From IMG/VR virus record IMGVR_UViG_3300045988_083426: DNA of 42,045 nt; one strand, given 5' to 3'. Every line of letters begins with the position of its first letter. Position 1 is the stretch's first letter. A program made the translations under genes and the position numbers. The notes beneath the pieces were generated by a model that worked only from the letters and a program-made list of their open reading frames with translations, made no database searches and had not been told where the DNA came from. Source of the stretch: a virus. Below are positions 27,588 to 40,797 of this stretch, one piece after another.

Positions 27588-30500
27588 ATGAGCGATTTTC
27601 TGAAACGGAGGATTCAGGAGCGCGACGAACAGCGGCGGGGCACGCAGGAGACGAGCGCGCCCGCCAGCTCGTTTTTGCAGCAGCGGATCCAGCAGAGGGA
27701 CACGCAGCGCGCGGAGAGCGGCTACCGCGCGCCGACGGGGACGCACAAGACGATGCTCGGCATGTCGCTCGAGGAGTACAAGGCCAAGCTCGACGAAGCG
27801 CTGGCGGCATGGAAGAGCACAAGCGCGACGACGGAGAGCGGCCTTGCAAACCCGAAGGAGGCACAGGCGCGCAAAACGTATCAGACGATGCGCAAGCAGT
27901 ACAAGGCCCTGCAGCAGCGCGAGAGCGAGAAGCAGCAGGCGCAGGCGGCGCAGCAGGAGTATGACGAGCTGCGCGTCGCAGACCTGAACGCGCTGAAGGC
28001 AAAGATGGACGCGGCGAAGGAATCGGCGGACGGCTCGGCGAAGGAGCGCGTCGTCGCGGGGAGCATCGTCAAGCAGAAGGACTCCGGCGCGCAGGCCGCC
28101 TATGAGGAGGCGGCGCGCAAGTATAACCTCGCGCAGCAGATCCAGTACGACGAGCGCGGCGCACAGGCGCTGGGCAAGCTCTCGGAGGAGGAAGCGGCGG
28201 CGGTCGACACGCTGGCAAAGAGCACAAACAAGGGGCGGAAAACGGACATCGTGGGCGCGGGGATCATCGACGAAATGCGCCGCAAGGCAACGAAGGTGCT
28301 CACGGACGCGGGGTACAGCGCGGAGGAGATCGACGAGCTGGCGAACTGGCGGGCGCGCCAGCAGAACGCGCAGAAGTATGACGCGGCGGTGGAAAAACGC
28401 GAGGCGCTCGCGGACAAGGGCCTCTGGGGCGCAGCGGCGGCGACGGCGCTGTCCGTGCCGGAGACGCTGCTGAGCGGCATCGGCGTGATCGACGTCGCCG
28501 TCCAGAACTACGAAAACCGCGGGACAGACCGCCCGGCGGATTACAAGCGCACGGCGATGCTGCCATACGCCATGGCGACGGCGGGGCGGAGCACGATCTC
28601 GAACAAGCTCGAACAGAACACCGACGCAGAGATCTTCGGGCAGAACGTCGCGGCGGGTGCTTACAACATCGGGACGAGCGTGCTCGATTCGACGGCGGTG
28701 GCGGGGCTGGCCGCGCTGGGCGTGCCGCCGCTGGCGGCGACGTCGCTGCTCGGCGGCGCGGCGGCGACGAGCGCGATGGTCGACGCGAAGGATCGGGGCG
28801 TTTCAGACGAGCAGGCAGTGCTCACGGGCCTTGCGGCGGGCGTGGCGGAATCGCTGTTTGAAGAAGTGTCTCTTGAGAAACTGCTCAAGCTGAAGCCGGC
28901 GGTCGGGACACTGGGGCAGCGAGTGCGCACGACGATCAAGAACGTGGGATTGCAGGCGGCGACGGAGGGCTCGGAGGAGTTCTTCACGACGCTGGCGAAC
29001 ACCATGACGGACAACCTGATTAACGGGGGACTGAGCGAATTCCAGCAGAATCTCCGGGGCTACATGGAGCAGGGGATGAGCGAGGAGCAGGCCCGGCGGC
29101 GCGCGTATCTGGATCTCGCGGGACAGCTGGCACTCGACTTCGGCGGCGGCGCCATCGCGGGCGGATTGATGGCGGGCGGACAGACGGCCATCCAGACCGG
29201 ACAGCGCAACGCGGCGATTGCGCAGGAGTACGGCGACATTGCGCGCGGCGCGGCGCAGGAGCGGCTTGAGACAAACGAGGGCGACCGGCTGGCGCAGGAC
29301 GTACAGAACCGTGTAAGCTCCAACCGGCGGGTCGGCGGCGGGGCCATCGCGGAGCTGGTGAGCCGAAACGTACAGGCGCAGAACGCGCAGACGCAGACGG
29401 CCATCGCGGAAGCGGCGGCGCAGCGGCTGACGGAGCTGGGCGAGACGGAGAACGTGGAGACCGTCGCGCAGGCGGCGGCGCAGCTGACGGCGGACCCGAC
29501 GATGAGCGCGGGCCGACGCCGGGCGGCGGAGAACGTCCTGAAGGGCAGCCGGTACGGCGAGCGCGTGCTCGGCGAGCTGACGGAGGGGATGCAGGCCGAC
29601 AGCGCGGAGAGCGCCCCCGCCGCGGTGCAGGAGCAGAGCGCCGTGCCGAGCGCGGAGCAGGTGCGGCAGGCCGTGGAGAGCACCCAACGGAGCCGGGGCG
29701 CGCAGAACCTGACGGAATCGCGCGGGGGCGAGGAGCGCACGCAGAGCGGGCGGCGGTTCGCGTCCGAATGGGCGGGGAACCTGCCGCAGGTGCTGACGGA
29801 GGACGCCTACGTCCGGCGGCTGAAAGAATTGCGCGTGAATCCCCAGGCGACGGACAGCCGGACGGTGACGGGCACGGCCTACAACAAGGAGAGCGGCAAG
29901 CTCGACGTGATTGTCCGGGGTACGGACGGCAAGGTGGAGACGATCCCGGCGGCGAAGGCGGCCACTACGGCGCGGCAGGAGCGGCTCATGGAGCTGGCGG
30001 CGGACGTGGGCGAGGCGGGGCCGCAGATGTTCGCGGCGATCCGCGACGGGCAGGACGTGGAGACGTATGCACGGCAGTGGAAGAACGCCTACACCTACGG
30101 CGAGAGCAACATCCCGCGCGCCTACGCGATGCAGTCGGACGCGGTGAAGTATCTGACGGCGGAGCAGCGGGACATCGCGTATGAAGCGGGAAAGGCCGCC
30201 TACGACCAGAAACAGACCAAGGCGCGCACGAAGCGCGCGGCAAGGGGGAACGATACCCACAAGGCAAAGAAGGGCACTGTGAAGCTCACAGGGGCCGTTA
30301 TCGGCGGCAAGCGGTATGACGGGGTGAGCAAAGCGTCGCTGACGGAGCGGCAGCGGGCGAACCTCAAGGTGCTGGGGCAGGTCGCGCAGGCGACGGGCGT
30401 TGACATCGTGCTCTATCAGAGCCGGGCGAACGCGCGCGGCGAGTACGAGGGGCAGAACGGCGCCTACAAGGACGGCACGCTCTATCTCGACATCAACGCG

Positions 30501-33500
30501 GGGAGAAACCGCGTGGGGGATCTGAGCGAGGTGGCCGTGGTGCGGACGGCGGCGCACGAGCTGACGCACTTTATTCAGGACTACAACCCGGCGGCTTACG
30601 CAGAATACCGCGATTATGTGGTGGGGCTGCTCACAGAGGAGCAGGGCATGGACTTCGACGCGCTGGTGGAGCACAAGCAGGCGCTGCAGAACGACCTGAG
30701 CTATGACGAGGCCGTGGACGAGGTGGTCGCGGACGGCAGCGAGATGCTGCTGCGCGACACGGCGGCGGTGCAGCGGCTGGCCGAGGAGAACCGGGGGCTG
30801 TTCCAGAAAATCCGGTCGTGGCTGCGCAAGTGGCTCGAGAACATCAAAAAGGCGTTCGACGGCGTGGGTGCGGAGCACGCGGAGGCAAAAGCGCTCGAAA
30901 AGCATCTCGAGGAGCTGCAGAAGCGCTGGGACGACGCGCTCGTCGGCGCGTCGCGAAATTTGCAGAGGAGCAGGGCGGAAGCGGAGAGTGCCGGCGAGAA
31001 AGCGTCCGTGCGTGGAAAATACTGGCGGCCGGATCTCAATCGGTCGGAATGGAATCTTCTGAACCGGCGGCTGGAGGAAGAAATCGAAAGTTCCGGACAG
31101 TATATTGACGAATCGACGAAATGGCTGTATGCTGATGAAAAAGGCGTACAGGTGTTCGCTTTGTACGGCATCGGTGACGGCACGGAGGCCACGCCGCTGT
31201 ATGCGGTTGGCGGGAAGCAGGCCAGATATGCGGCATCCCTTATGCAGGATGTTATTGAGGAGGTTGGAAGAAGTGACGGAAACGCAGAAGGATTTGATTC
31301 ATGGGCTGAAAATCTTCGGAGCAAAAACGGGAACTATCGTAGAAATTATGCTCAGGCTGGAGACGGAAAGCCAGCAGGAAGAAATGCTGGGCTACATGGT
31401 AGATCACAGGGACGCAACACCGGAAAGCCTGCTGGAGATGGCAAGGGCAAGTCGTCCGGCGTAAGGGAAAAGTTCTCCCTGCGAGACAGCGCGGGGCGCG
31501 AGCTGACGGCGGCGCAGCAGGAATACTTCCGTGACAGTCAGGTGCGGGATGCGGACGGGAATCTGCTGGTCATGTATCACCAGACAGAGGGCGCGTTCAC
31601 AGTGTTCGATACCCGGCACAAGGGCGCGGGAACCGGCGACGATGAAACGCCGTTCGGCATCTTCCTGAAACGGACGGCGCGGGATATCGGCGTTCGCGGA
31701 AAGAACCAGATGGAGCTTTACGCGAACATCCGCAACCCGCTGCGCGTGCGTGATCGCGCGGAGCTGGTCGAACGGCTTCGCGAGCTGTCCGGAACATACG
31801 CGGAGCTGAAAGACCAGTCGGGGAAGATCGACAAGGAATACGGCGCGAAGTTCGCAGAAGCGAAGGCCGCTTTCAAAAACTTCCTTTTGCAGTGGCGCAA
31901 GGAAAACCCGGATGCACCGAGCCGGGCGGCCTATGACGCGGAAGGTTTTGATGCCGCATTCGACGCAGAGGACAACGTGGTAAAGGAATGGACGCAGAAG
32001 AAAGACGAGCTTGCGCTGCGTGCGAAAGAGGCCATTACCGACGCGCTGCGCAAAAACGGCTATGACGGCGTGATTCTGGAGAGTGACCGTGGCAGCTGGG
32101 GGCGCAGCACGGATGCCTACATTGCGCTGGACGCGAATCAGGTGAAGAACGTCACGAACCAGAACCCGACGGAGGATCCGGACATCCGGTATTCCGCGCG
32201 GGATTATGGGTTGACGGAGGACGAGGAACATGCTATCGTCAGTTATAAGTCGGGCGACAGCTACGCGCTGAACGGGAAGCTCGCGACCGGCGGGAAGCTG
32301 ACAGAGCTGCAGAGGTCGCTGCGCGACCATCTGGACACGGCGCTGGAGAAGCTGCCGGTCTACAAAGGAACGGTGTACCGCCACTACGACTTCGACTCTT
32401 TCGGCGGGTACGAGGCAATGGCGGAGTTCCTGTCGCAGTTCGCAAAGGGCAGAGCTGTACCGATGAGCAGTTATCTGTCGGCCAGCACGGTGCGCAACGA
32501 GGATCGGACGAACGGCGAGTATACGGTCGACATGGTGATCCAGTCTGAGACGGGACGCAGCCTGAACGGTTTCGGTCGGGATACAGAGAACGAGGTGCTG
32601 CTGTCGAGGACGACCGAGCTGATCGCCGATTCTATGGAGCTTATCAGCCCGCACAAAGTGAGAATTACAGCACGGGAGGTTGTAAAAAATGGAACAGGAA
32701 CGGCCGCCGATTCTGCATCAGTTGGTGTGCGCGACGTGCGAGAAAGCGAACAGAGAACTGACGGATTGCGACAAGTATCCGGACGGAATCCCGGAGGAGT
32801 ACAGACGGAAAGTGGAAGGTCTGCCGGACGAGACGGGGACGCCGGATTGTCCGGACTACGAGAGGGAACACGATCCGGATCGCTGGGTGAACCCGGAGTG
32901 GAAAGCGATTATCGAGCAGCTGAGGAAGGGCTGAAATACCAGCCGAGGGAGCAGAGCGTGAGCGACCGGCAGATTCTGGCGAACGCGCTGGAGCGCGTGG
33001 CGCAGAACGAGCGGGAGAGGTCCATTCTCGCGGACTACCGGGAGAAGGCCGCAAAGATGGCCTTTTATGAGAGGGAGCTGGCTAAGCGCGAGCAGAAGAT
33101 CGCCGACCACCGCAGCGGAAAGGCCGTTCTCGAGCCGGACAAGCTCCGGCGGGCGGAGGTCTCGGCGCAGAAGTACGCCGCGCTGATCAGCCAGCAGGAC
33201 GAGCGGCTGCTGCGGCTGGAGAAGCTCAAGCCGCTGCGCGACGTGGTGACGCGGGAGCGAGACTACATCGCCGAGCGGCTGCGCGGCGCCGCGGAGGAGA
33301 AGAGCCGCTACACGGCGGAATTCGAGCGGCAGCTGAGCGAGGAGCGCAAGCGCGGCGAGGAGCGGCTGCAGCAGTACCGCAAAGGCCGCGAGGAGCGCGA
33401 CGACATCCGCGTGGAGCGGCGGCAGATCGAGAAGCTGGCGAAGCGGCTGACGACGTATCTCGAGGAGAACACGGACAAGAAGCACATCCCGGAGGCGCTG

Positions 33501-36500
33501 AAAAAGCCGATCGGGGAGCTGCTGCAGTCGCTGGACTTCTCGTCCAAAACAAAGCTCTCGTCCGGGGCGGCGACGAAGACCGACCTCGCGTACATCCGGT
33601 CGATGCAGCGGATCGAGGCCGTACTCGCGGCGCAGGAGCGGTTCGACGAGACGGGCGAGGGCGGCGACCTGATCACAGGGACGCTGGATCTGCCGAAGGG
33701 CTTCCGCGAGGCGCTGGCGGAGCAGATCGAGCGGGTACAGACGATCATGGAGACGCACCAGCCGGGCGAGCGCGCGGTCATGCGGATGAATCTCGCCGAC
33801 CTGCGGAAGCTGCGGGTGATGCTCTCGACGCTCTCCAGCGCGGTGACGAAGATGAACGAGCTGTTCGCAAACGGGCAGTTCCGGCACGTCGATCAGGCGG
33901 CGCAGGACACGATTTTTACGCTGCGCGAGAAGGGGCAGCACCAGTCGCTCCTGCCGAAGGTCGAGAGCTTCGTCCGGTGGGACAACACGCTGCCGTGGTA
34001 CGCGTTCCAGCGGCTGGGCGAGGGCGGACAGTCCATCTTCGCGGAGCTGCAGGACGGCTGGGACAAGCTGGCGTTCAACACGCAGAAGATCCTCAAATTC
34101 CGCAAGGAGCTGATCGACGACAAGACGGCGCGCAAGTGGGACACGGAGGTACACGAGGTCGAGCTGACCGACCAGGACGACAACACCGTCAAGGCGAAGC
34201 TGACGACGGCACAGCTGATGAGCCTTTACTGCCTCTCGCGGCGCCGGCAGGCGCTGGGGCATCTGCTCGGCGGCGGCATCCGGCCGGCGGATATCGAGCT
34301 GACGGCGAACATCAAAGACAAGGTGCTGAAAAAGACCGAGAAGCAGGACACGCACTATCACCTGACGGACGAGCGGCTGGGGCAGCTGCTGGGTCTGCTG
34401 ACGGACGAGCAGCGCGAGATCGCGCAGAAGATGCAGAAGTACATGACGGAGCAGGGCGCGACGTGGGGCAACGAGATCACGATGGCGCGCTGGGGCTACC
34501 GGGCGTTCACGGAGGAGAACTATTTCCCGCTGACGACCGACCGCGAGGACCGGCCCGCCCGCGCGGACGACGCGTCGGAGGGAAGTCTTTACCGGCTGCA
34601 GAACATCTCGGCGACGAAGCCGCTGACGCAGAACGCGAACAACGCGGTGATGCTCTACAGCATCTTCGACGTGTACGCCGACCACATGGCGGACATGGCC
34701 AAGTACAACGCGATGGTGCTGCCGATCCTCGACGCGCAGAAGTGGTACAACTACAAGGAAGGCCACAAGAACGAGGCGGGGCAGGTGAGCACATGGACGG
34801 TGCAGCGGACGCTGACGCAGGTTTACGGGCGGGACGCGAACCGGTTCGTGATCCAGTTCCTGAAGGACCTGAACGGCGTGAAGGAAAACGGCGCGCGGGG
34901 CGAGGGTCTCGCGAAGAAGATGATCTCGAACTACAAGCGGGCAGCGGTCGCGGCCAACCTGCGCGTGGCGCTGCTGCAGCCGACGGCGTATGTGCGCGCG
35001 TCGGCGGTGCTGGACGCGAAGTATCTGACGCGCGCCTTCGGCGAGCGGACGAGCACGAAGGAAGCGACGGCGGAGATGCTGGCGCGCAGCGGCATCGGCC
35101 TGTGGAAGAGCATGGGCATGTTCGACACGGACGTCGGCCGGAGTATCCGCGACCAGATCAAGGGCAAGGGCAGCGCGGTGGAATCGCTCGTGGACAAGAC
35201 GATGGTGCTCGCGGAGAAGGGCGACAGCATCACATGGGCGCGGCTCTGGCGCGCGTGCAAGCTGGAGGTTCAGGACAAGCAGCACCTCTCGGGCGAGCAG
35301 CTGCTGGACGCGACGGCGAAGCGGTTCCGCGAGGTGATCTACCGGACGCAGGTGATCGACAGCACCATGACGCGCAGCCACATGATGCGCTCGGGGTCGA
35401 CGTTTGTGGCGATCTTCACGAGCTTCATGTCGGAGCCGACCGTCTCCTACAACCTCATCATGACGGCATCGGAGAAGATCTGGGAGGACACGAAGAAGTA
35501 CGGCGCGAAGATGGCCGTGAAGCGCAACTGGAAGACGGCGGGGCGGGCGTGGCAGGCGTACATCCTGTCGGCGGTCGCGTCGGCGATGGTGGAAGCGCTG
35601 GCGGACGCATGGCGCGATCCGGGCGACGACAAGGACACGCAGAAGCTGCTCAACGCCTTCCGCGACAACCTCGGAAGCGACCTGAACCCGCTCAATAAGC
35701 TGCCGGGCCTGCGGGACATCTTCTCGATTTTCGAGGGATACGACACGAACCGGACGGACATGGCGGCGTTCAGCAACCTGAACAAGGCCATCGCCATCTG
35801 GAAGGAGACGATCCAGCTCGCAAACGGCACGATCGACGAGGCGACGGACACGACGTACCACGGGAACATGACGATCTACGGCAAGGTCTATAAAACGGCG
35901 CAGGCGCTGTCGCAGCTGAGCGGACTGCCGGTGTCGGCGACGATGCGCGAGGCGCAGGCGCTCTGGAACAACACGGTGGGCCGGTGGGCGCCGGGGCTGA
36001 AACAGAAGACCTATGACAACGAGAAGCAGCGGCTCATCCAGAAGGCCGGAACGGCCATGTGGAACGGAGACAAGGACGCATGGCAGGATGCATACGCGGC
36101 GCTGGAGCAGTACATGCTCGCAGACGGCAAGAGCAAGCGCGAGGCGGAGAGCGCCGTCTACAGCGAGATGCGCAAGGCCGTGAAGGATTCCTATCTCGCG
36201 GGCGAGCTGACGGAGACGGAAGCGCGGCAGAAGCTCGTGGACTTCCTCGGATCGGACGCGGAGAAGGCCGCGCAGCAGGTCACGAGCTGGAAGAATGGCT
36301 CGGAGTTTGCGAAGGAGGTCGGGTTCGAGTACGGCGAGATGCGCAGCGCCTATGAGACGGGACGGATCCAGAAGAGCGAGGCGGTGCGCCTGCGCCAGAA
36401 GTACGGCGGCGAGACGCAGGACGAGGCCGAGAGCAAGGTGCGGTACTGGGATTTCTGCATCGAATATCCGCAGTACGACGACATCAGCGAAGCGCGGGCG

Positions 36501-36743
36501 AACAAGTACTACGACTACTGCCGGCAGGCGGGCGTGGGCGTCGCGGCGTATTACAAGGCGGCGCAGTACACGGCGGCCATCGTGAGCGAGAAGGACGAGG
36601 ACGGCAACAGCGTCTCCGGCTCGGTCAAGCGGCAGTACGTGGAGTACATCCAGTCGCTGGGGCTCTCGGCAGCGCAGCAGAAGGCGCTGTGGCAGGCGCT
36701 GAAAAACGCGACATGGAGCGACAAGGGGACGCCGTGGGAGTAA
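27588..36743 (+). CDS. Giant polyvalent virion protein (3051 aa) with HExxH metallopeptidase and ADP-ribosyltransferase motifs
   Basis: One uninterrupted frame. AAHELTHFIQ at 30555-30569 (H990). ART R-S-ExE triad: VYRH (R1598, 32379), YLSAST (S1631, 32478), ENEVLL (E1667 and E1669, 32586-32594). Confidence 0.8.
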   Translation: MSDFLKRRIQERDEQRRGTQETSAPASSFLQQRIQQRDTQRAESGYRAPTGTHKTMLGMSLEEYKAKLDEALAAWKSTSATTESGLANPKEAQARKTYQTMRKQYKALQQRESEKQQAQAAQQEYDELRVADLNALKAKMDAAKESADGSAKERVVAGSIVKQKDSGAQAAYEEAARKYNLAQQIQYDERGAQALGKLSEEEAAAVDTLAKSTNKGRKTDIVGAGIIDEMRRKATKVLTDAGYSAEEIDELANWRARQQNAQKYDAAVEKREALADKGLWGAAAATALSVPETLLSGIGVIDVAVQNYENRGTDRPADYKRTAMLPYAMATAGRSTISNKLEQNTDAEIFGQNVAAGAYNIGTSVLDSTAVAGLAALGVPPLAATSLLGGAAATSAMVDAKDRGVSDEQAVLTGLAAGVAESLFEEVSLEKLLKLKPAVGTLGQRVRTTIKNVGLQAATEGSEEFFTTLANTMTDNLINGGLSEFQQNLRGYMEQGMSEEQARRRAYLDLAGQLALDFGGGAIAGGLMAGGQTAIQTGQRNAAIAQEYGDIARGAAQERLETNEGDRLAQDVQNRVSSNRRVGGGAIAELVSRNVQAQNAQTQTAIAEAAAQRLTELGETENVETVAQAAAQLTADPTMSAGRRRAAENVLKGSRYGERVLGELTEGMQADSAESAPAAVQEQSAVPSAEQVRQAVESTQRSRGAQNLTESRGGEERTQSGRRFASEWAGNLPQVLTEDAYVRRLKELRVNPQATDSRTVTGTAYNKESGKLDVIVRGTDGKVETIPAAKAATTARQERLMELAADVGEAGPQMFAAIRDGQDVETYARQWKNAYTYGESNIPRAYAMQSDAVKYLTAEQRDIAYEAGKAAYDQKQTKARTKRAARGNDTHKAKKGTVKLTGAVIGGKRYDGVSKASLTERQRANLKVLGQVAQATGVDIVLYQSRANARGEYEGQNGAYKDGTLYLDINAGRNRVGDLSEVAVVRTAAHELTHFIQDYNPAAYAEYRDYVVGLLTEEQGMDFDALVEHKQALQNDLSYDEAVDEVVADGSEMLLRDTAAVQRLAEENRGLFQKIRSWLRKWLENIKKAFDGVGAEHAEAKALEKHLEELQKRWDDALVGASRNLQRSRAEAESAGEKASVRGKYWRPDLNRSEWNLLNRRLEEEIESSGQYIDESTKWLYADEKGVQVFALYGIGDGTEATPLYAVGGKQARYAASLMQDVIEEVGRSDGNAEGFDSWAENLRSKNGNYRRNYAQAGDGKPAGRNAGLHGRSQGRNTGKPAGDGKGKSSGVREKFSLRDSAGRELTAAQQEYFRDSQVRDADGNLLVMYHQTEGAFTVFDTRHKGAGTGDDETPFGIFLKRTARDIGVRGKNQMELYANIRNPLRVRDRAELVERLRELSGTYAELKDQSGKIDKEYGAKFAEAKAAFKNFLLQWRKENPDAPSRAAYDAEGFDAAFDAEDNVVKEWTQKKDELALRAKEAITDALRKNGYDGVILESDRGSWGRSTDAYIALDANQVKNVTNQNPTEDPDIRYSARDYGLTEDEEHAIVSYKSGDSYALNGKLATGGKLTELQRSLRDHLDTALEKLPVYKGTVYRHYDFDSFGGYEAMAEFLSQFAKGRAVPMSSYLSASTVRNEDRTNGEYTVDMVIQSETGRSLNGFGRDTENEVLLSRTTELIADSMELISPHKVRITAREVVKNGTGTAADSASVGVRDVRESEQRTDGLRQVSGRNPGGVQTESGRSAGRDGDAGLSGLREGTRSGSLGEPGVESDYRAAEEGLKYQPREQSVSDRQILANALERVAQNERERSILADYREKAAKMAFYERELAKREQKIADHRSGKAVLEPDKLRRAEVSAQKYAALISQQDERLLRLEKLKPLRDVVTRERDYIAERLRGAAEEKSRYTAEFERQLSEERKRGEERLQQYRKGREERDDIRVERRQIEKLAKRLTTYLEENTDKKHIPEALKKPIGELLQSLDFSSKTKLSSGAATKTDLAYIRSMQRIEAVLAAQERFDETGEGGDLITGTLDLPKGFREALAEQIERVQTIMETHQPGERAVMRMNLADLRKLRVMLSTLSSAVTKMNELFANGQFRHVDQAAQDTIFTLREKGQHQSLLPKVESFVRWDNTLPWYAFQRLGEGGQSIFAELQDGWDKLAFNTQKILKFRKELIDDKTARKWDTEVHEVELTDQDDNTVKAKLTTAQLMSLYCLSRRRQALGHLLGGGIRPADIELTANIKDKVLKKTEKQDTHYHLTDERLGQLLGLLTDEQREIAQKMQKYMTEQGATWGNEITMARWGYRAFTEENYFPLTTDREDRPARADDASEGSLYRLQNISATKPLTQNANNAVMLYSIFDVYADHMADMAKYNAMVLPILDAQKWYNYKEGHKNEAGQVSTWTVQRTLTQVYGRDANRFVIQFLKDLNGVKENGARGEGLAKKMISNYKRAAVAANLRVALLQPTAYVRASAVLDAKYLTRAFGERTSTKEATAEMLARSGIGLWKSMGMFDTDVGRSIRDQIKGKGSAVESLVDKTMVLAEKGDSITWARLWRACKLEVQDKQHLSGEQLLDATAKRFREVIYRTQVIDSTMTRSHMMRSGSTFVAIFTSFMSEPTVSYNLIMTASEKIWEDTKKYGAKMAVKRNWKTAGRAWQAYILSAVASAMVEALADAWRDPGDDKDTQKLLNAFRDNLGSDLNPLNKLPGLRDIFSIFEGYDTNRTDMAAFSNLNKAIAIWKETIQLANGTIDEATDTTYHGNMTIYGKVYKTAQALSQLSGLPVSATMREAQALWNNTVGRWAPGLKQKTYDNEKQRLIQKAGTAMWNGDKDAWQDAYAALEQYMLADGKSKREAESAVYSEMRKAVKDSYLAGELTETEARQKLVDFLGSDAEKAAQQVTSWKNGSEFAKEVGFEYGEMRSAYETGRIQKSEAVRLRQKYGGETQDEAESKVRYWDFCIEYPQYDDISEARANKYYDYCRQAGVGVAAYYKAAQYTAAIVSEKDEDGNSVSGSVKRQYVEYIQSLGLSAAQQKALWQALKNATWSDKGTPWE
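31273..31464 (+). CDS. Nested alternative-frame ORF 1 (63 aa) inside the polyvalent gene
   Basis: GAGGAGG (31257-31263), 9 nt, then GTG. VTETQKDLIHGLKIFGAKTGTIVEIMLRLETESQQEEMLGYMVDHRDATPESLLEMA. GC3 about 60% versus about 38% for the host frame over the same nucleotides (hand count). Confidence 0.5.
   Translation: MTETQKDLIHGLKIFGAKTGTIVEIMLRLETESQQEEMLGYMVDHRDATPESLLEMARASRPA
32689..32934 (+). CDS. Nested alternative-frame ORF 2 (81 aa, Cys-rich) inside the polyvalent gene, right after the ART domain
   Basis: GGGAGG SD 8 nt before the ATG. CATCEKA...CDKYPDGIP...CPDYE. GC3 about 74% versus about 41% for the host frame (hand count). Confidence 0.55.
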   Translation: MEQERPPILHQLVCATCEKANRELTDCDKYPDGIPEEYRRKVEGLPDETGTPDCPDYEREHDPDRWVNPEWKAIIEQLRKG

Positions 36744-40669: not shown

Positions 40670-40695
40670 GGGTTCGACTCCCCTCAGCTCCACCA
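40670..40695 (+). other. attP core: copy of a tmRNA (ssrA)-type 3' end
   Basis: GGGTTCGACTCCCCTCAGCTCCACCA is a T-loop, T-stem 3' strand, Ala-type acceptor 3' strand CAGCTCC, and ACCA. No matching 5' half is present upstream. Confidence 0.7.
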
Positions 40696-40700
40696 AAACG

Positions 40701-40740
40701 AAATCCCTGAAACCGCAATGGTTTCAGGGATTTTTCTTTT
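40701..40740 (+). terminator. Rho-independent terminator following the tmRNA-like end
   Basis: aaatccctgaaacc / ggtttcagggattt stem followed by TTTTTCTTTT. Confidence 0.8.
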
Positions 40741-40797
40741 GGCAGCAACGGTTTGACGGATTCGGAATGATAGAATGTATGACGCTATTTTGGTGGG

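Follow-up and report, generated by a model that had tools for sequence, protein, structure and literature searches.

Is an 81-aa reading frame that lies out of frame inside a giant phage gene, directly behind an ADP-ribosyltransferase domain, a gene in its own right, and could its product restrain that domain? The question is raised by the genome of a gut phage (IMG/VR record IMGVR_UViG_3300045988_083426), analysed here as a single stretch of 42,045 nucleotides which we refer to as the window. All features described below lie on its plus strand.

The giant host ORF (27588-36743) is free of interruptions and encodes a 3051-aa polyvalent protein associated with the virion. Its neighbors are portal, major head, internal virion, tail and lysis genes. 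The phage is temperate, since it carries an integrase, a repressor-like gene and Ant. Both the N-terminal and the C-terminal parts of the giant protein match phrog_22978, a profile of 3513 positions. Giant ORFs of 3052-3275 codons with near-identical flanks occur at loci L009, L010 and L012, a truncated one of at least 2501 codons was found at L008, and host ORFs of at least 2500 codons are present in three clusters of nested-ORF copies. A recent fusion of two genes was considered as the origin of the giant ORF and rejected, because phrog_22978 spans both ends and three diverged lineages keep the ORF whole. The occurrence of PF18760 (ART-PolyVal) and PF03496 (ADPrib_exo_Tox) within one ORF of this size places the protein among the polyvalent proteins, and a PBECR5 fragment was found in remnants related to the giant gene. 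An HExxH motif (AAHELTHF, aa ~998-1005) is present without a match to a peptidase family, and no MuF or Phage_Mu_F Pfam domain was detected anywhere along the protein. A blastn search of the region against GenBank phages gave no match; tblastn with the C-terminal third matched one unannotated record of 4.8 kb.

The giant protein contains two successive ADP-ribosyltransferase domains. The first, an ART-PolyVal domain (aa 1321-1528, 31548-32174), matched PF18760 with an E-value of 5.4e-16 and 60 bits (cut-off 31.2). The second (aa 1531-1700, 32175-32687), here called ART2, is of the R-S-E type and matched PF03496 above the gathering threshold, with an E-value of 3.3e-9 and 36.8 bits (cut-off 23.4). 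The triad positions proposed for ART2 in the initial annotation, R1598 (32379), S1631 (32478) and E1667-N-E1669 (32586-32594), all proved correct. The E-x-E glutamates (E1667/E1669) are invariant among homologues, and R1598 and the serine of the S-x-S motif (S1631) are conserved in every homologue that spans those columns. ART2 thus has the intact catalytic motif expected of a toxin module, and its dN/dS is 0.18-0.33. The nearest solved relative by profile is Tre1 (6DRE_B/6DRH_B), with an E-value of 1.3e-4 over the N-terminal 60 residues. That ART2 would be toxic is assumed from its family.

Behind ART2, the nested ORF runs in the +1 frame from an ATG at 32689 to a TGA at 32932-32934, entirely within the giant ORF; the coordinates and the 81-aa translation were as first described. 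The contrast in GC content that had been noted for this frame was also borne out, the values at codon positions 1/2/3 being 0.62/0.41/0.73 in the nested frame and 0.73/0.62/0.41 for the same bases in the host frame. It is the nested frame that shows the normal codon-position pattern of the phage; the whole host gene has 0.64/0.44/0.86. The host frame reads through the nested gene as a 90-aa linker (32688-32957) consisting for 51% of Gly, Ser, Arg and Ala, the filler-like composition that had been claimed for it.

The nested protein is acidic (pI 4.7) and has cysteines at positions 14, 17, 27 and 54. Residues that are invariant in the family include C17, C27, YP, IP and W66/W71. Family searches with Pfam, NCBIfam, PHROG and PADLOC gave no match, no similarity to known immunity, antitoxin or defence families was found, and a profile search of the PDB returned a chance-level match only. 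The family is narrow, since an exhaustive profile search of 1.84 billion representatives yielded only 16 clusters and no link to a named family. AlphaFold2 gave no usable fold for the 81-aa protein (22 sequences, pLDDT 51), and the prediction for P0032, a natural fusion of ART2 and the nested protein that served as a stand-in for the complex, was uninformative (pLDDT 52).

An indel or chimera introduced by sequencing or assembly could create a false giant or a false nested ORF, and the window is indeed a metagenome-type sequence with a homopolymer at the junction. However, the same arrangement is found, identical or diverged, in independent assemblies from IMG/VR, ENA, Logan and GTDB MAGs. This replication refutes an artefact, the probability of which we regard as practically negligible.

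Stop codons in the nested frame of homologous genes, named at the outset as the observation that would speak against a gene, were encountered in none of 85 copies. These represent 56 distinct DNAs and 51 distinct proteins in 10 clusters at 85% amino acid identity, and all are intact at divergences down to ~50% identity. Homologues that have been called as separate genes number 21, with 60-99% identity. The NG86 dN/dS values were 0.12-0.53 in the nested frame versus 0.74-1.36 in the host frame over the same bases. The nested frame is thus under purifying selection and the host frame over the nested gene drifts freely in amino acid sequence. Intactness in all copies together with these dN/dS values establishes the nested ORF as a real, conserved protein-coding gene.

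The host frame is nevertheless maintained as an open frame. It spans the nested ORF in 76 of the 85 copies, and at the loci of two distant members (L019 and L022, encoding nested proteins P0056 and P0055) it extends from ART2 across the ORF and on into other downstream domains. A T at nested codon position 3 before AA, AG or GA was present in 1 of 374 such contexts among 12 embedded copies (0 of 31 in the window), compared to 87 of 646 positions (13.5%) elsewhere in the same ORFs. In control genes these frequencies were 5.2% and 8.1%, respectively. Stand-alone homologues do carry T before AA, AG or GA, which shows a relaxed constraint, and in the stand-alone genes of L013/L014 (141 aa) and L021 (194 aa) the -1 frame is closed. 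The host frame is therefore kept open by synonymous-codon choice within the nested gene, and this avoidance of T identifies the segment as truly dual-coding. Keeping the frame open is cheap, because the host frame is the -1 frame of the GC3-rich nested ORF and such a frame rarely holds stops: it is open in 46% of 82-codon stretches of the ordinary genes of this phage, and the exact probability of an open host frame given the 81-aa protein is 0.04-0.20.

With this high background of open -1 frames the insertion of a small gene could be tolerated, and the host-frame product is plausibly a mere linker. The stretch could accordingly be viewed as a fossil, a gene once captured that is now linker-coding DNA only, with its intact frame as a leftover. 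The selection data contradict this, as the host frame has a dN/dS of about 1 where the nested frame is constrained. The persistence of intact copies in all ten clusters, and the conservation of the start codon, the ribosome site and the cysteine and aromatic residues, argue against it as well, and we judge a fossil very unlikely.

The initial annotation held that two nested ORFs in one gene, both leaving the host frame open, were improbable by chance. The existence of the other ORF was confirmed by its GC pattern and homologues; the chance argument was overstated in view of the control stretches mentioned above. This first nested ORF (about 31273-31464, 63 aa) is also in the +1 frame and has a GTG start with GAGGAGG 8 nt upstream. 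It is covered by a frame-shifted GC pattern at 31190-31460, has been called as a gene elsewhere (P0064-P0066), and has homologues with 50% identity in the same relative frame in L001, L006, L011, L016 and L017. Whereas about nine off-frame ORFs of at least 55 aa occur in the giant gene, coding-like GC was found only in these two. The alternative cassette that L010 carries at the first variable region was checked and contains no nested ORF; embedding is therefore specific to certain modules and not general to cassettes.

The start region of the 81-aa ORF is preceded by a GGGAGG ribosome-binding site (32674-32679) at a distance of 9 nt, not 8 as originally counted. A GGAGG-type motif at equal spacing was present in all 16 copies checked across lineages, and the start codon in these is ATG except in the L015 type, which has GTG. 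The combination GGAGG-N5-10-ATG occurs only twice within the 9.2-kb giant gene, and many true genes of the window start with it. Conservation of the GGGAGG motif is ambiguous since it also encodes a conserved 'RE' in the host frame. It is this conserved GGAGG-N9 start-codon signal that suggests translation of the nested product. A promoter scan gave two weak sites (31105-31133 and 32211-32239) versus 0.7 expected, neither convincing, and a terminator scan found none.

Instead of starting independently, the Cys-rich segment might be fused to ART2 by +1 slippage during translation or transcription at the A6 run (32684-32689), giving a truncated protein of ~1780 aa that ends at 32934 and is made alongside the full-length protein. 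The sequence GTA AAA AAT G permits a +1 shift of tRNA-Lys on the A run, which is present in the window, L001-L004, L009 and L014, and one database protein (P0032) is a fusion of this kind. However, the run is missing from L006, L010/L012, L015, L016, L019 and L022, and yet the arrangement persists there; no conserved slippery sequence thus marks the frame junction. In 13 of 16 copies checked, a stop in the nested frame lies 1-9 codons ahead of the ATG, which leaves almost no room for a shift site. The conserved features are the ATG and its spacing from the ribosome site, and P0032 changes frame mid-ORF, as expected of an indel in a decaying copy. A slip is therefore highly improbable, and independent initiation is the reading that we maintain.

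Past the nested stop, the window, L001-L012 and the chromosomal remnants share a stretch (32935-32970) with few or no differences, and the homology of the remnants ends at 32970. This stretch contains GAGGGAG (32945-32951) and an in-frame GTG (32958), as had been noted, and in the host frame it forms the beginning of the next module (..QPREQSVSDRQIL..). The proposal that the downstream third is initiated independently found no support beyond this motif, and phrog_22978 spans the N- and C-terminal parts as one protein family. Internal initiation at the GTG is possible from the motif.

The association with the transferase, central to the original proposal, was upheld. ART2, or at least its C-terminal part, precedes the ORF in the host frame in about 58 of 65 metagenome copies and ends no more than 120 nt upstream of it, and the viral loci likewise have ART2 directly upstream. 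The C-terminal two thirds of ART2 and the first two thirds of the nested ORF together form a hypervariable cassette (32380-32880), with an ungapped identity of 72% to L012 and 68% to L010 between flanks of 97-100%; the genes that contain this divergent block are 98-100% identical elsewhere. At the protein level, the L012 allele is 88% identical in ART2, 69% in the nested ORF, and 94-100% in the flanks.

Bacterial chromosomes contain remnants in which the nested ORF is intact beside a truncated ART2 (L001-L007, L011). In islands of the L005 type ART2 is full-length, truncated or absent and the nested ORF is always intact. L016 has two tandem copies of the nested ORF with a C-terminal fragment of ART2 between them, and nested-family genes stand alone in L013/L014. 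The gene for a distant homologue, P0057, lies directly after an ADP-ribosylglycohydrolase gene (PF03747) and 1.4 kb before a Macro-domain gene, which is a single locus. A co-diverging block, orphans, tandem arrays and intact ORFs beside eroded toxin fragments are comparative signatures of the toxin-immunity cassette type, in agreement with the original suggestion. Many unannotated copies of the nested family are held by gut Oscillospiraceae genomes. The position of remnants ahead of a gene resembling trpS raised the suspicion of a T-box leader. Such a leader is disfavored by the conservation of the ORF as protein; the Rfam scan, which took in window positions 31000-33300 only, gave no RNA family.

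On balance we lean toward the nested ORF being an independently translated embedded gene of which the product binds and blocks ART2, the immunity role being suggested by genomic context. Ribosomes would start at GGGAGG-N9-ATG and produce a small acidic protein that probably binds zinc via Cys14, Cys17, Cys27 and Cys54. By binding to ART2 and blocking it, this protein would protect the cell in which the giant protein is made. With a temperate phage such as this one, protection would extend to lysogens into which sibling virions deliver the toxin domain. Protection of the producer cell during packaging, the purpose originally envisaged, is one option; protection of lysogens from virion-delivered toxin fits at least as well. 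ART2 and its inhibitor would diversify together and, through homologous recombination, be swapped as one cassette between giant genes that are conserved in their other parts, and bacteria may keep orphan copies of the inhibitor after the toxin part erodes. Orphan immunity arrays (PMC5361080) and internal promoters of immunity genes (PMC3857813) are known in T6SS loci.

All evidence for a real gene applies equally if the product is not an inhibitor of ART2. It might act as a chaperone for assembly or packaging of the giant protein, as a regulator that binds zinc, as a cofactor of ART2 or a subunit that targets it, or as an unrelated anti-defence effector that shares the cassette. The tight adjacency to ART2 could be plain physical linkage in a mobile cassette, the protein showed no resemblance to known immunity families, and the module ahead of the first nested ORF has no recognisable toxin. 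Moreover, injected transferases such as T4 Alt, a host-takeover effector of the R-S-E type, act without immunity partners (PMC8120803), so an injected transferase need not require one. A chaperone or cofactor, however, would have no reason to stay intact in chromosomes that have lost ART2 and the giant gene or carry them in eroded form (L001-L007, L011, L013, L016, L017, L071-L072), nor to be duplicated in tandem beside toxin fragments as in L016. The local co-divergence with ART2 and the hydrolase and Macro-domain neighbors of P0057 point to antagonism of ADP-ribosylation. We therefore consider a function other than inhibition of ART2 unlikely, though of appreciable weight, and continue with the inhibitor as the preferred reading.

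Few genes embedded on the same strand have solid evolutionary support in bacteria and phages, and annotation pipelines are designed to leave them out; the comparative evidence for the present case is unusually clean. A simple rule makes it possible: hardly any stops occur in the -1 frame of a GC3-rich gene, which allows a giant modular gene to traverse a small one and use it as a spacer. Should the 81-aa protein indeed inhibit the transferase, effector domains in polyvalent virion proteins can come with immunity genes of their own, as those of polymorphic toxins do, a feature so far undescribed for polyvalent proteins. Lysogens and their neighbors would then gain a route to resistance against injected phage effectors, and the 171-aa enzyme with its 81-aa partner and natural allelic variants would form a compact, tractable pair. 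A broader proposal is that out-of-frame genes generally hide in the linkers of giant phage proteins that are injected, with the nested family inhibiting a virion-delivered ADP-ribosyltransferase. We regard this as rather improbable. If it were true, prophage-borne or orphan copies, expressed alone, would neutralise the toxin domain injected by related phages, providing protection against superinfection and other phage attack by effector immunity and not by nucleic-acid sensing, and a local arms race would explain the hypervariable block of ART2 and inhibitor.

The arrangement is similar to that in polymorphic toxin-immunity cassettes of Rhs, CDI and T6SS systems and of phage MuF proteins, where a small cognate gene comes directly after the toxin domain (Zhang et al. 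2012; Jamet et al. 2017, PMC5576092). Toxin and partner co-vary within conserved carrier genes in both cases, and chromosomes gather orphan partner genes along with toxin fragments, the Vibrio cholerae arrays being an example (PMC5361080). Virion delivery of the carrier has been proposed for MuF toxins (PMC5576092), and the giant protein is likewise a phage-virion carrier, albeit one in which no MuF domain was detected. Unlike in polymorphic toxins, the toxin domain is internal instead of C-terminal, and the carrier ORF reads through the partner in another frame and continues for 1260 more codons. The nested protein also differs from described partners in belonging to no described immunity family. 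With the polyvalent proteins (Iyer et al. 2017, PMC5512222) the giant protein shares its large multi-domain architecture with ART-PolyVal and further effector modules, its location among virion genes with presumed delivery together with DNA, and the shuffling of modules between relatives, as illustrated by the PBECR5 fragment in the remnants. A term search of that paper gave no mention of out-of-frame genes in polyvalent genes or of dedicated immunity partners.

Tre1 of Serratia proteamaculans is an antibacterial toxin with a cognate immunity protein, Tri1, which neutralises it by occluding the active site (PDB 6DRE/6DRH; PMC8120803). Tre1 is an arginine-type transferase with the R-S-E motif that ART2 also has, and the two resemble each other weakly and only in part. 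Encoded by a separate gene, Tri1 is a ~40-kDa DraG-like hydrolase, whereas the 81-aa protein has no hydrolase domain according to Pfam and NCBIfam; a PF03747 gene adjoins only the distant homologue P0057, as a separate gene. T4 Alt is an R-S-E ADP-ribosyltransferase that is present in the phage particle and acts immediately upon infection (PMC8120803). It resembles ART2 in being virion-carried, but it is a separate protein of a virulent phage with no known inhibitor gene.

As regards genetic organisation, the closest parallels are lambda Rz1, embedded in Rz on the same strand in the +1 frame, and comS of Bacillus subtilis, which lies within the giant synthetase gene srfA, again on the same strand. 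In each a small, independently initiated gene lies wholly inside a larger gene in another frame, as found here, and srfA, the host of comS, resembles the phage gene further in being giant and modular. Rz1 and Rz form a single lysis complex as its two subunits, and comS regulates competence and is unrelated to the gene in which it lies. In contrast, the overlapped host segment in the phage gene is a spacer and not a functional domain, and the nested gene appears to encode an antagonist of the domain encoded just upstream.

The window derives from a temperate phage with a GC content of 62%. It encodes terminase, portal, major head, internal virion, tail, holin and endolysin proteins, as well as lysogeny-type genes for an Ant anti-repressor, an HTH repressor-like protein and an integrase. 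A HicB-like antitoxin family protein (705-1151, + strand; phrog_497, E 3.5e-38) is encoded near the repressor-like gene. The ORF at 27588-36743 encodes 3051 residues. Since both its N-terminal 1170 and its C-terminal 1260 residues match phrog_22978, a PHROG of giant proteins with a 3513-position profile, a single giant polypeptide is the ancestral state. An ART-PolyVal domain (PF18760, aa 1321-1528) lies mid-protein and is directly followed by a second ADP-ribosyltransferase domain, ART2 (PF03496, aa 1531-1700; E 3.3e-9, above the gathering threshold). The R-S-ExE triad had been placed exactly by the initial annotation and corresponds to R1598, S1631 and E1667-N-E1669. In a profile search the nearest solved relative of ART2 was the antibacterial effector Tre1 (6DRE/6DRH, E 1.3e-4, match confined to the N-terminal 60 residues), followed by Vis, XopAI and C3 with scores at chance level. 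The giant gene is variable at 30950-32150, where comparison with two relatives (L010 8323-9492 and L012 4897-6021) showed that non-homologous cassettes were swapped in between otherwise near-identical phages; the L010 cassette carries other domains in the host frame and lacks a nested ORF.

Within the giant gene an ORF of 81 codons runs in the +1 frame from ATG 32689 to TGA 32934. Codon positions 1/2/3 of this ORF have a GC content of 0.62/0.41/0.73, a shape also found for the whole host gene (0.64/0.44/0.86). The host frame over the same bases gives 0.73/0.62/0.41, and Gly, Ser, Arg and Ala make up 51% of its translation. The giant gene contains some nine off-frame ORFs that reach 55 codons or more, of which only this one and the ORF at ~31273-31464 have a coding-like pattern; the remainder carry the signature of the host gene read off-frame. 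All 16 copies checked have a GGAGG-type site at a constant distance and a start codon, which is ATG (GTG in L015). The spacer between GGGAGG and the ATG measures 9 nt in the window, not 8 nt as initially annotated.

A protein search returned 21 homologues with 60-99% identity, each called as a separate small gene (81-116 residues); no Pfam domain was found in any of them. Viral contigs, GTDB genomes and metagenomes were also scanned, and together with exact look-ups this gave 85 copies (56 distinct DNAs, 51 distinct proteins, 10 clusters at 85% identity). The sources are without exception human-gut Clostridia (Oscillospiraceae-like MAGs) or phages of these bacteria. The ORF was intact in every copy. 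For identical nucleotides, pairwise NG86 dN/dS values were 0.12-0.53 in the nested frame versus 0.74-1.36 in the host frame; in the ART2 segment just upstream the host-frame values were 0.18-0.33. Several lines thus agree that the nested ORF is a gene, and the view that it is a fossil is poorly supported. So is an assembly artefact, as the arrangement was found again in independent assemblies. Recoding by a +1 slip would be permitted by an A6 run at the junction, but this run is missing in L006, L010/L012, L015, L016, L019 and L022, and a nested-frame stop occurs 1-9 codons upstream of the ATG in most checked copies, which makes such a slip improbable. In some assemblies an indel moves the ART2 frame part-way through the overlap into the nested frame (P0032, 276 aa) or into the third frame (P0034); these shifts show that the chromosomal copies concerned are decaying.

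Residues C17, C27, Y30-P31, I34-P35, W66 and W71 are invariant in the family, and C14 and C54 nearly so. This Cys/aromatic pattern suggests a small zinc-binding fold. The distant relatives P0060 (212 aa) and P0061 (276 aa), which had no match in Pfam or NCBIfam, are built from tandem repeats (two and four, respectively) of C-x2-C-x9-12-C-x-A-[YF]-P-x-G-[IV]-P, suggesting that the N-terminal half of the 81-aa protein is an independent zinc-binding unit. Neither of two structure prediction attempts gave a usable model.

The initial annotation regarded the open host frame as unlikely to arise by chance, which is too strong. Raw openness is unremarkable in a host frame that corresponds to the -1 frame of a GC3-rich ORF: in ordinary genes of the window phage 46% of 82-codon stretches are open in this frame, and the exact probability for the window copy, given its protein and codon usage, is 0.04-0.20. 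A host-frame stop requires a T at the third position of a nested codon, followed by a codon starting with AA, AG or GA. Across 12 embedded copies from different lineages, T occupied the third nested position in 87 of 646 harmless versus 1 of 374 dangerous contexts, the sole exception coming from a decayed array copy. The same test on ordinary genes gave 8.1% versus 5.2%, and dangerous-context T's are present in stand-alone homologues. The pooled P is descriptive only because the copies are related, yet third positions are much turned over (dS 0.25-0.8). The test does show selection for an open host frame. Combined with the nested-frame dN/dS, this bias indicates that both frames are constrained, the nested frame for its protein and the host frame only for openness. 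The host frame spans the nested ORF in 76 of the 85 copies and in three different clusters is part of giant ORFs with 2500 codons or more. The distant family members L019 and L022 have a host frame that extends from the end of ART2 across the ORF and into downstream domains that are quite different; in the stand-alone homologues L013/L014 (141 aa) and L021 (194 aa) the -1 frame is closed.

The other nested ORF proposed initially (31273-31464, + strand, +1 frame) is real as well. It encodes 63 aa, predicted to be helical and without a family match, from a GTG start with GAGGAGG 8 nt upstream, and comes after a module reading 'KYWRPDL..WLYADEKGVQVFALYGIGDGTEATPLYAVGG' (aa ~1140-1210). Other assemblies have it annotated as a gene (P0064-P0066), and homologues with 50% identity occur in the same frame in L001, L006, L011, L016 and L017. 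Weak sigma-70-like matches lie upstream of each nested ORF, at 31105-31133 (+; TTGACG-17-TATGCT) and at 32211-32239 (+; TTGACG-17-TATCGT with upstream TG); two found against 0.7 expected is not significant. The annotated GTG 32958 and its GAGGGAG are present and conserved, but these bases also code for the first residues of the following host-frame module, so that independent initiation of the last third is hypothetical.

In ~58 of 65 metagenome copies, as well as in the viral loci, the host frame has ART2, or the C-terminal part of it, ending just upstream of the ORF. The giant gene of the window matches those of L012 and L010 at 97-100% identity on either flank, with an ungapped fall to 72% and 68%, respectively, at 32380-32880, a stretch comprising all but the N-terminal third of ART2 and all but the last third of the nested ORF; protein identities are 88% for ART2, 69% for the nested ORF and 94-100% for the flanks. 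In bacterial chromosomes, remnants situated 5' of a trpS-like gene (L001-L007, L011) join an N-terminal piece of PBECR5 to the C-terminal half of ART2 and continue with an intact ORF; their homology to the window forms an ungapped 633-nt block (32338-32970). In L016 two tandem ORF copies enclose an ART2 C-terminal fragment, and in L017 ART2 is reduced to its last ~ten residues. An island of the L005 type, flanked by a ferredoxin-like and a MatE gene, has ART2 full-length, truncated or absent depending on the sample, and the ORF intact in 22 of 22 copies. Several paralogues occur per genome (L011 and L012 in UMGS1515; L013 and L016 in MGYG-HGUT-02595).

Remnants L001 954-2208, L006 93-1231 and L011 2643-3911 are mosaics of giant-gene pieces in the order aa 1130-1210 module, first nested ORF, PBECR5 (PF18814) fragment/ART2 C-terminal half and 81-aa ORF, with homology ending 12 nt past GTG 32958. 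A 100-nt stretch in the endolysin-integrase gap (40680-40780) recurs with 85% identity at the left edge of two remnants (L006 1-99, L007 29-127); its position there beside giant-gene fragments may point to rearranged prophage debris or to an attachment-site region. Among the stand-alone homologues with context, P0057 is the most distant; it is encoded directly 3' of an ADP-ribosylglycohydrolase gene on an integrase-bearing element, with a Macro-domain gene 1.4 kb beyond. At this locus (L021 718-4508) the glycohydrolase gene is split and P0057 joins the Cys-rich family domain to a 110-aa extension; the region is possibly a cluster of genes countering ADP-ribosylation.

Strict adjacency to ART2, joint divergence in a conserved carrier and orphans beside eroded toxin pieces are habits of toxin-immunity cassettes. 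Similar orphan/toxin-fragment patterns are seen in T6SS arrays (PMC5361080), and immunity genes independently expressed from within an effector gene are known (PMC3857813). MuF toxins of temperate phages have been proposed to be injected with DNA, with lysogens guarded by immunity genes (PMC5576092). In view of these habits and parallels we favour the 81-aa product as a putative ART2 inhibitor with a start site of its own. The foremost alternative is that the embedded gene is real but serves a different function: as T4 Alt illustrates, an R-S-E enzyme that is injected can do without a partner (PMC8120803), and family searches gave no match of the 81-aa protein to known immunity families. Polyvalent proteins are thought to be cut into domains by embedded peptidases (PMC5512222); a term search of that paper gave no reference to genes that are embedded or overlap, nor to dedicated immunity partners. 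If the giant protein is cut in this way, linker sequence would be nearly free and so could carry another gene. Literature searches found no natural toxin-immunity pair with such a layout. With the 81-aa product as ART2 inhibitor, the cassette type would be known, and the new aspect would be a partner gene that lies entirely, and out of frame, inside the gene for a giant virion protein. In architecture the closest parallels are Rz1 within Rz and comS within srfA, in which, as here, a small gene lies within a larger one.
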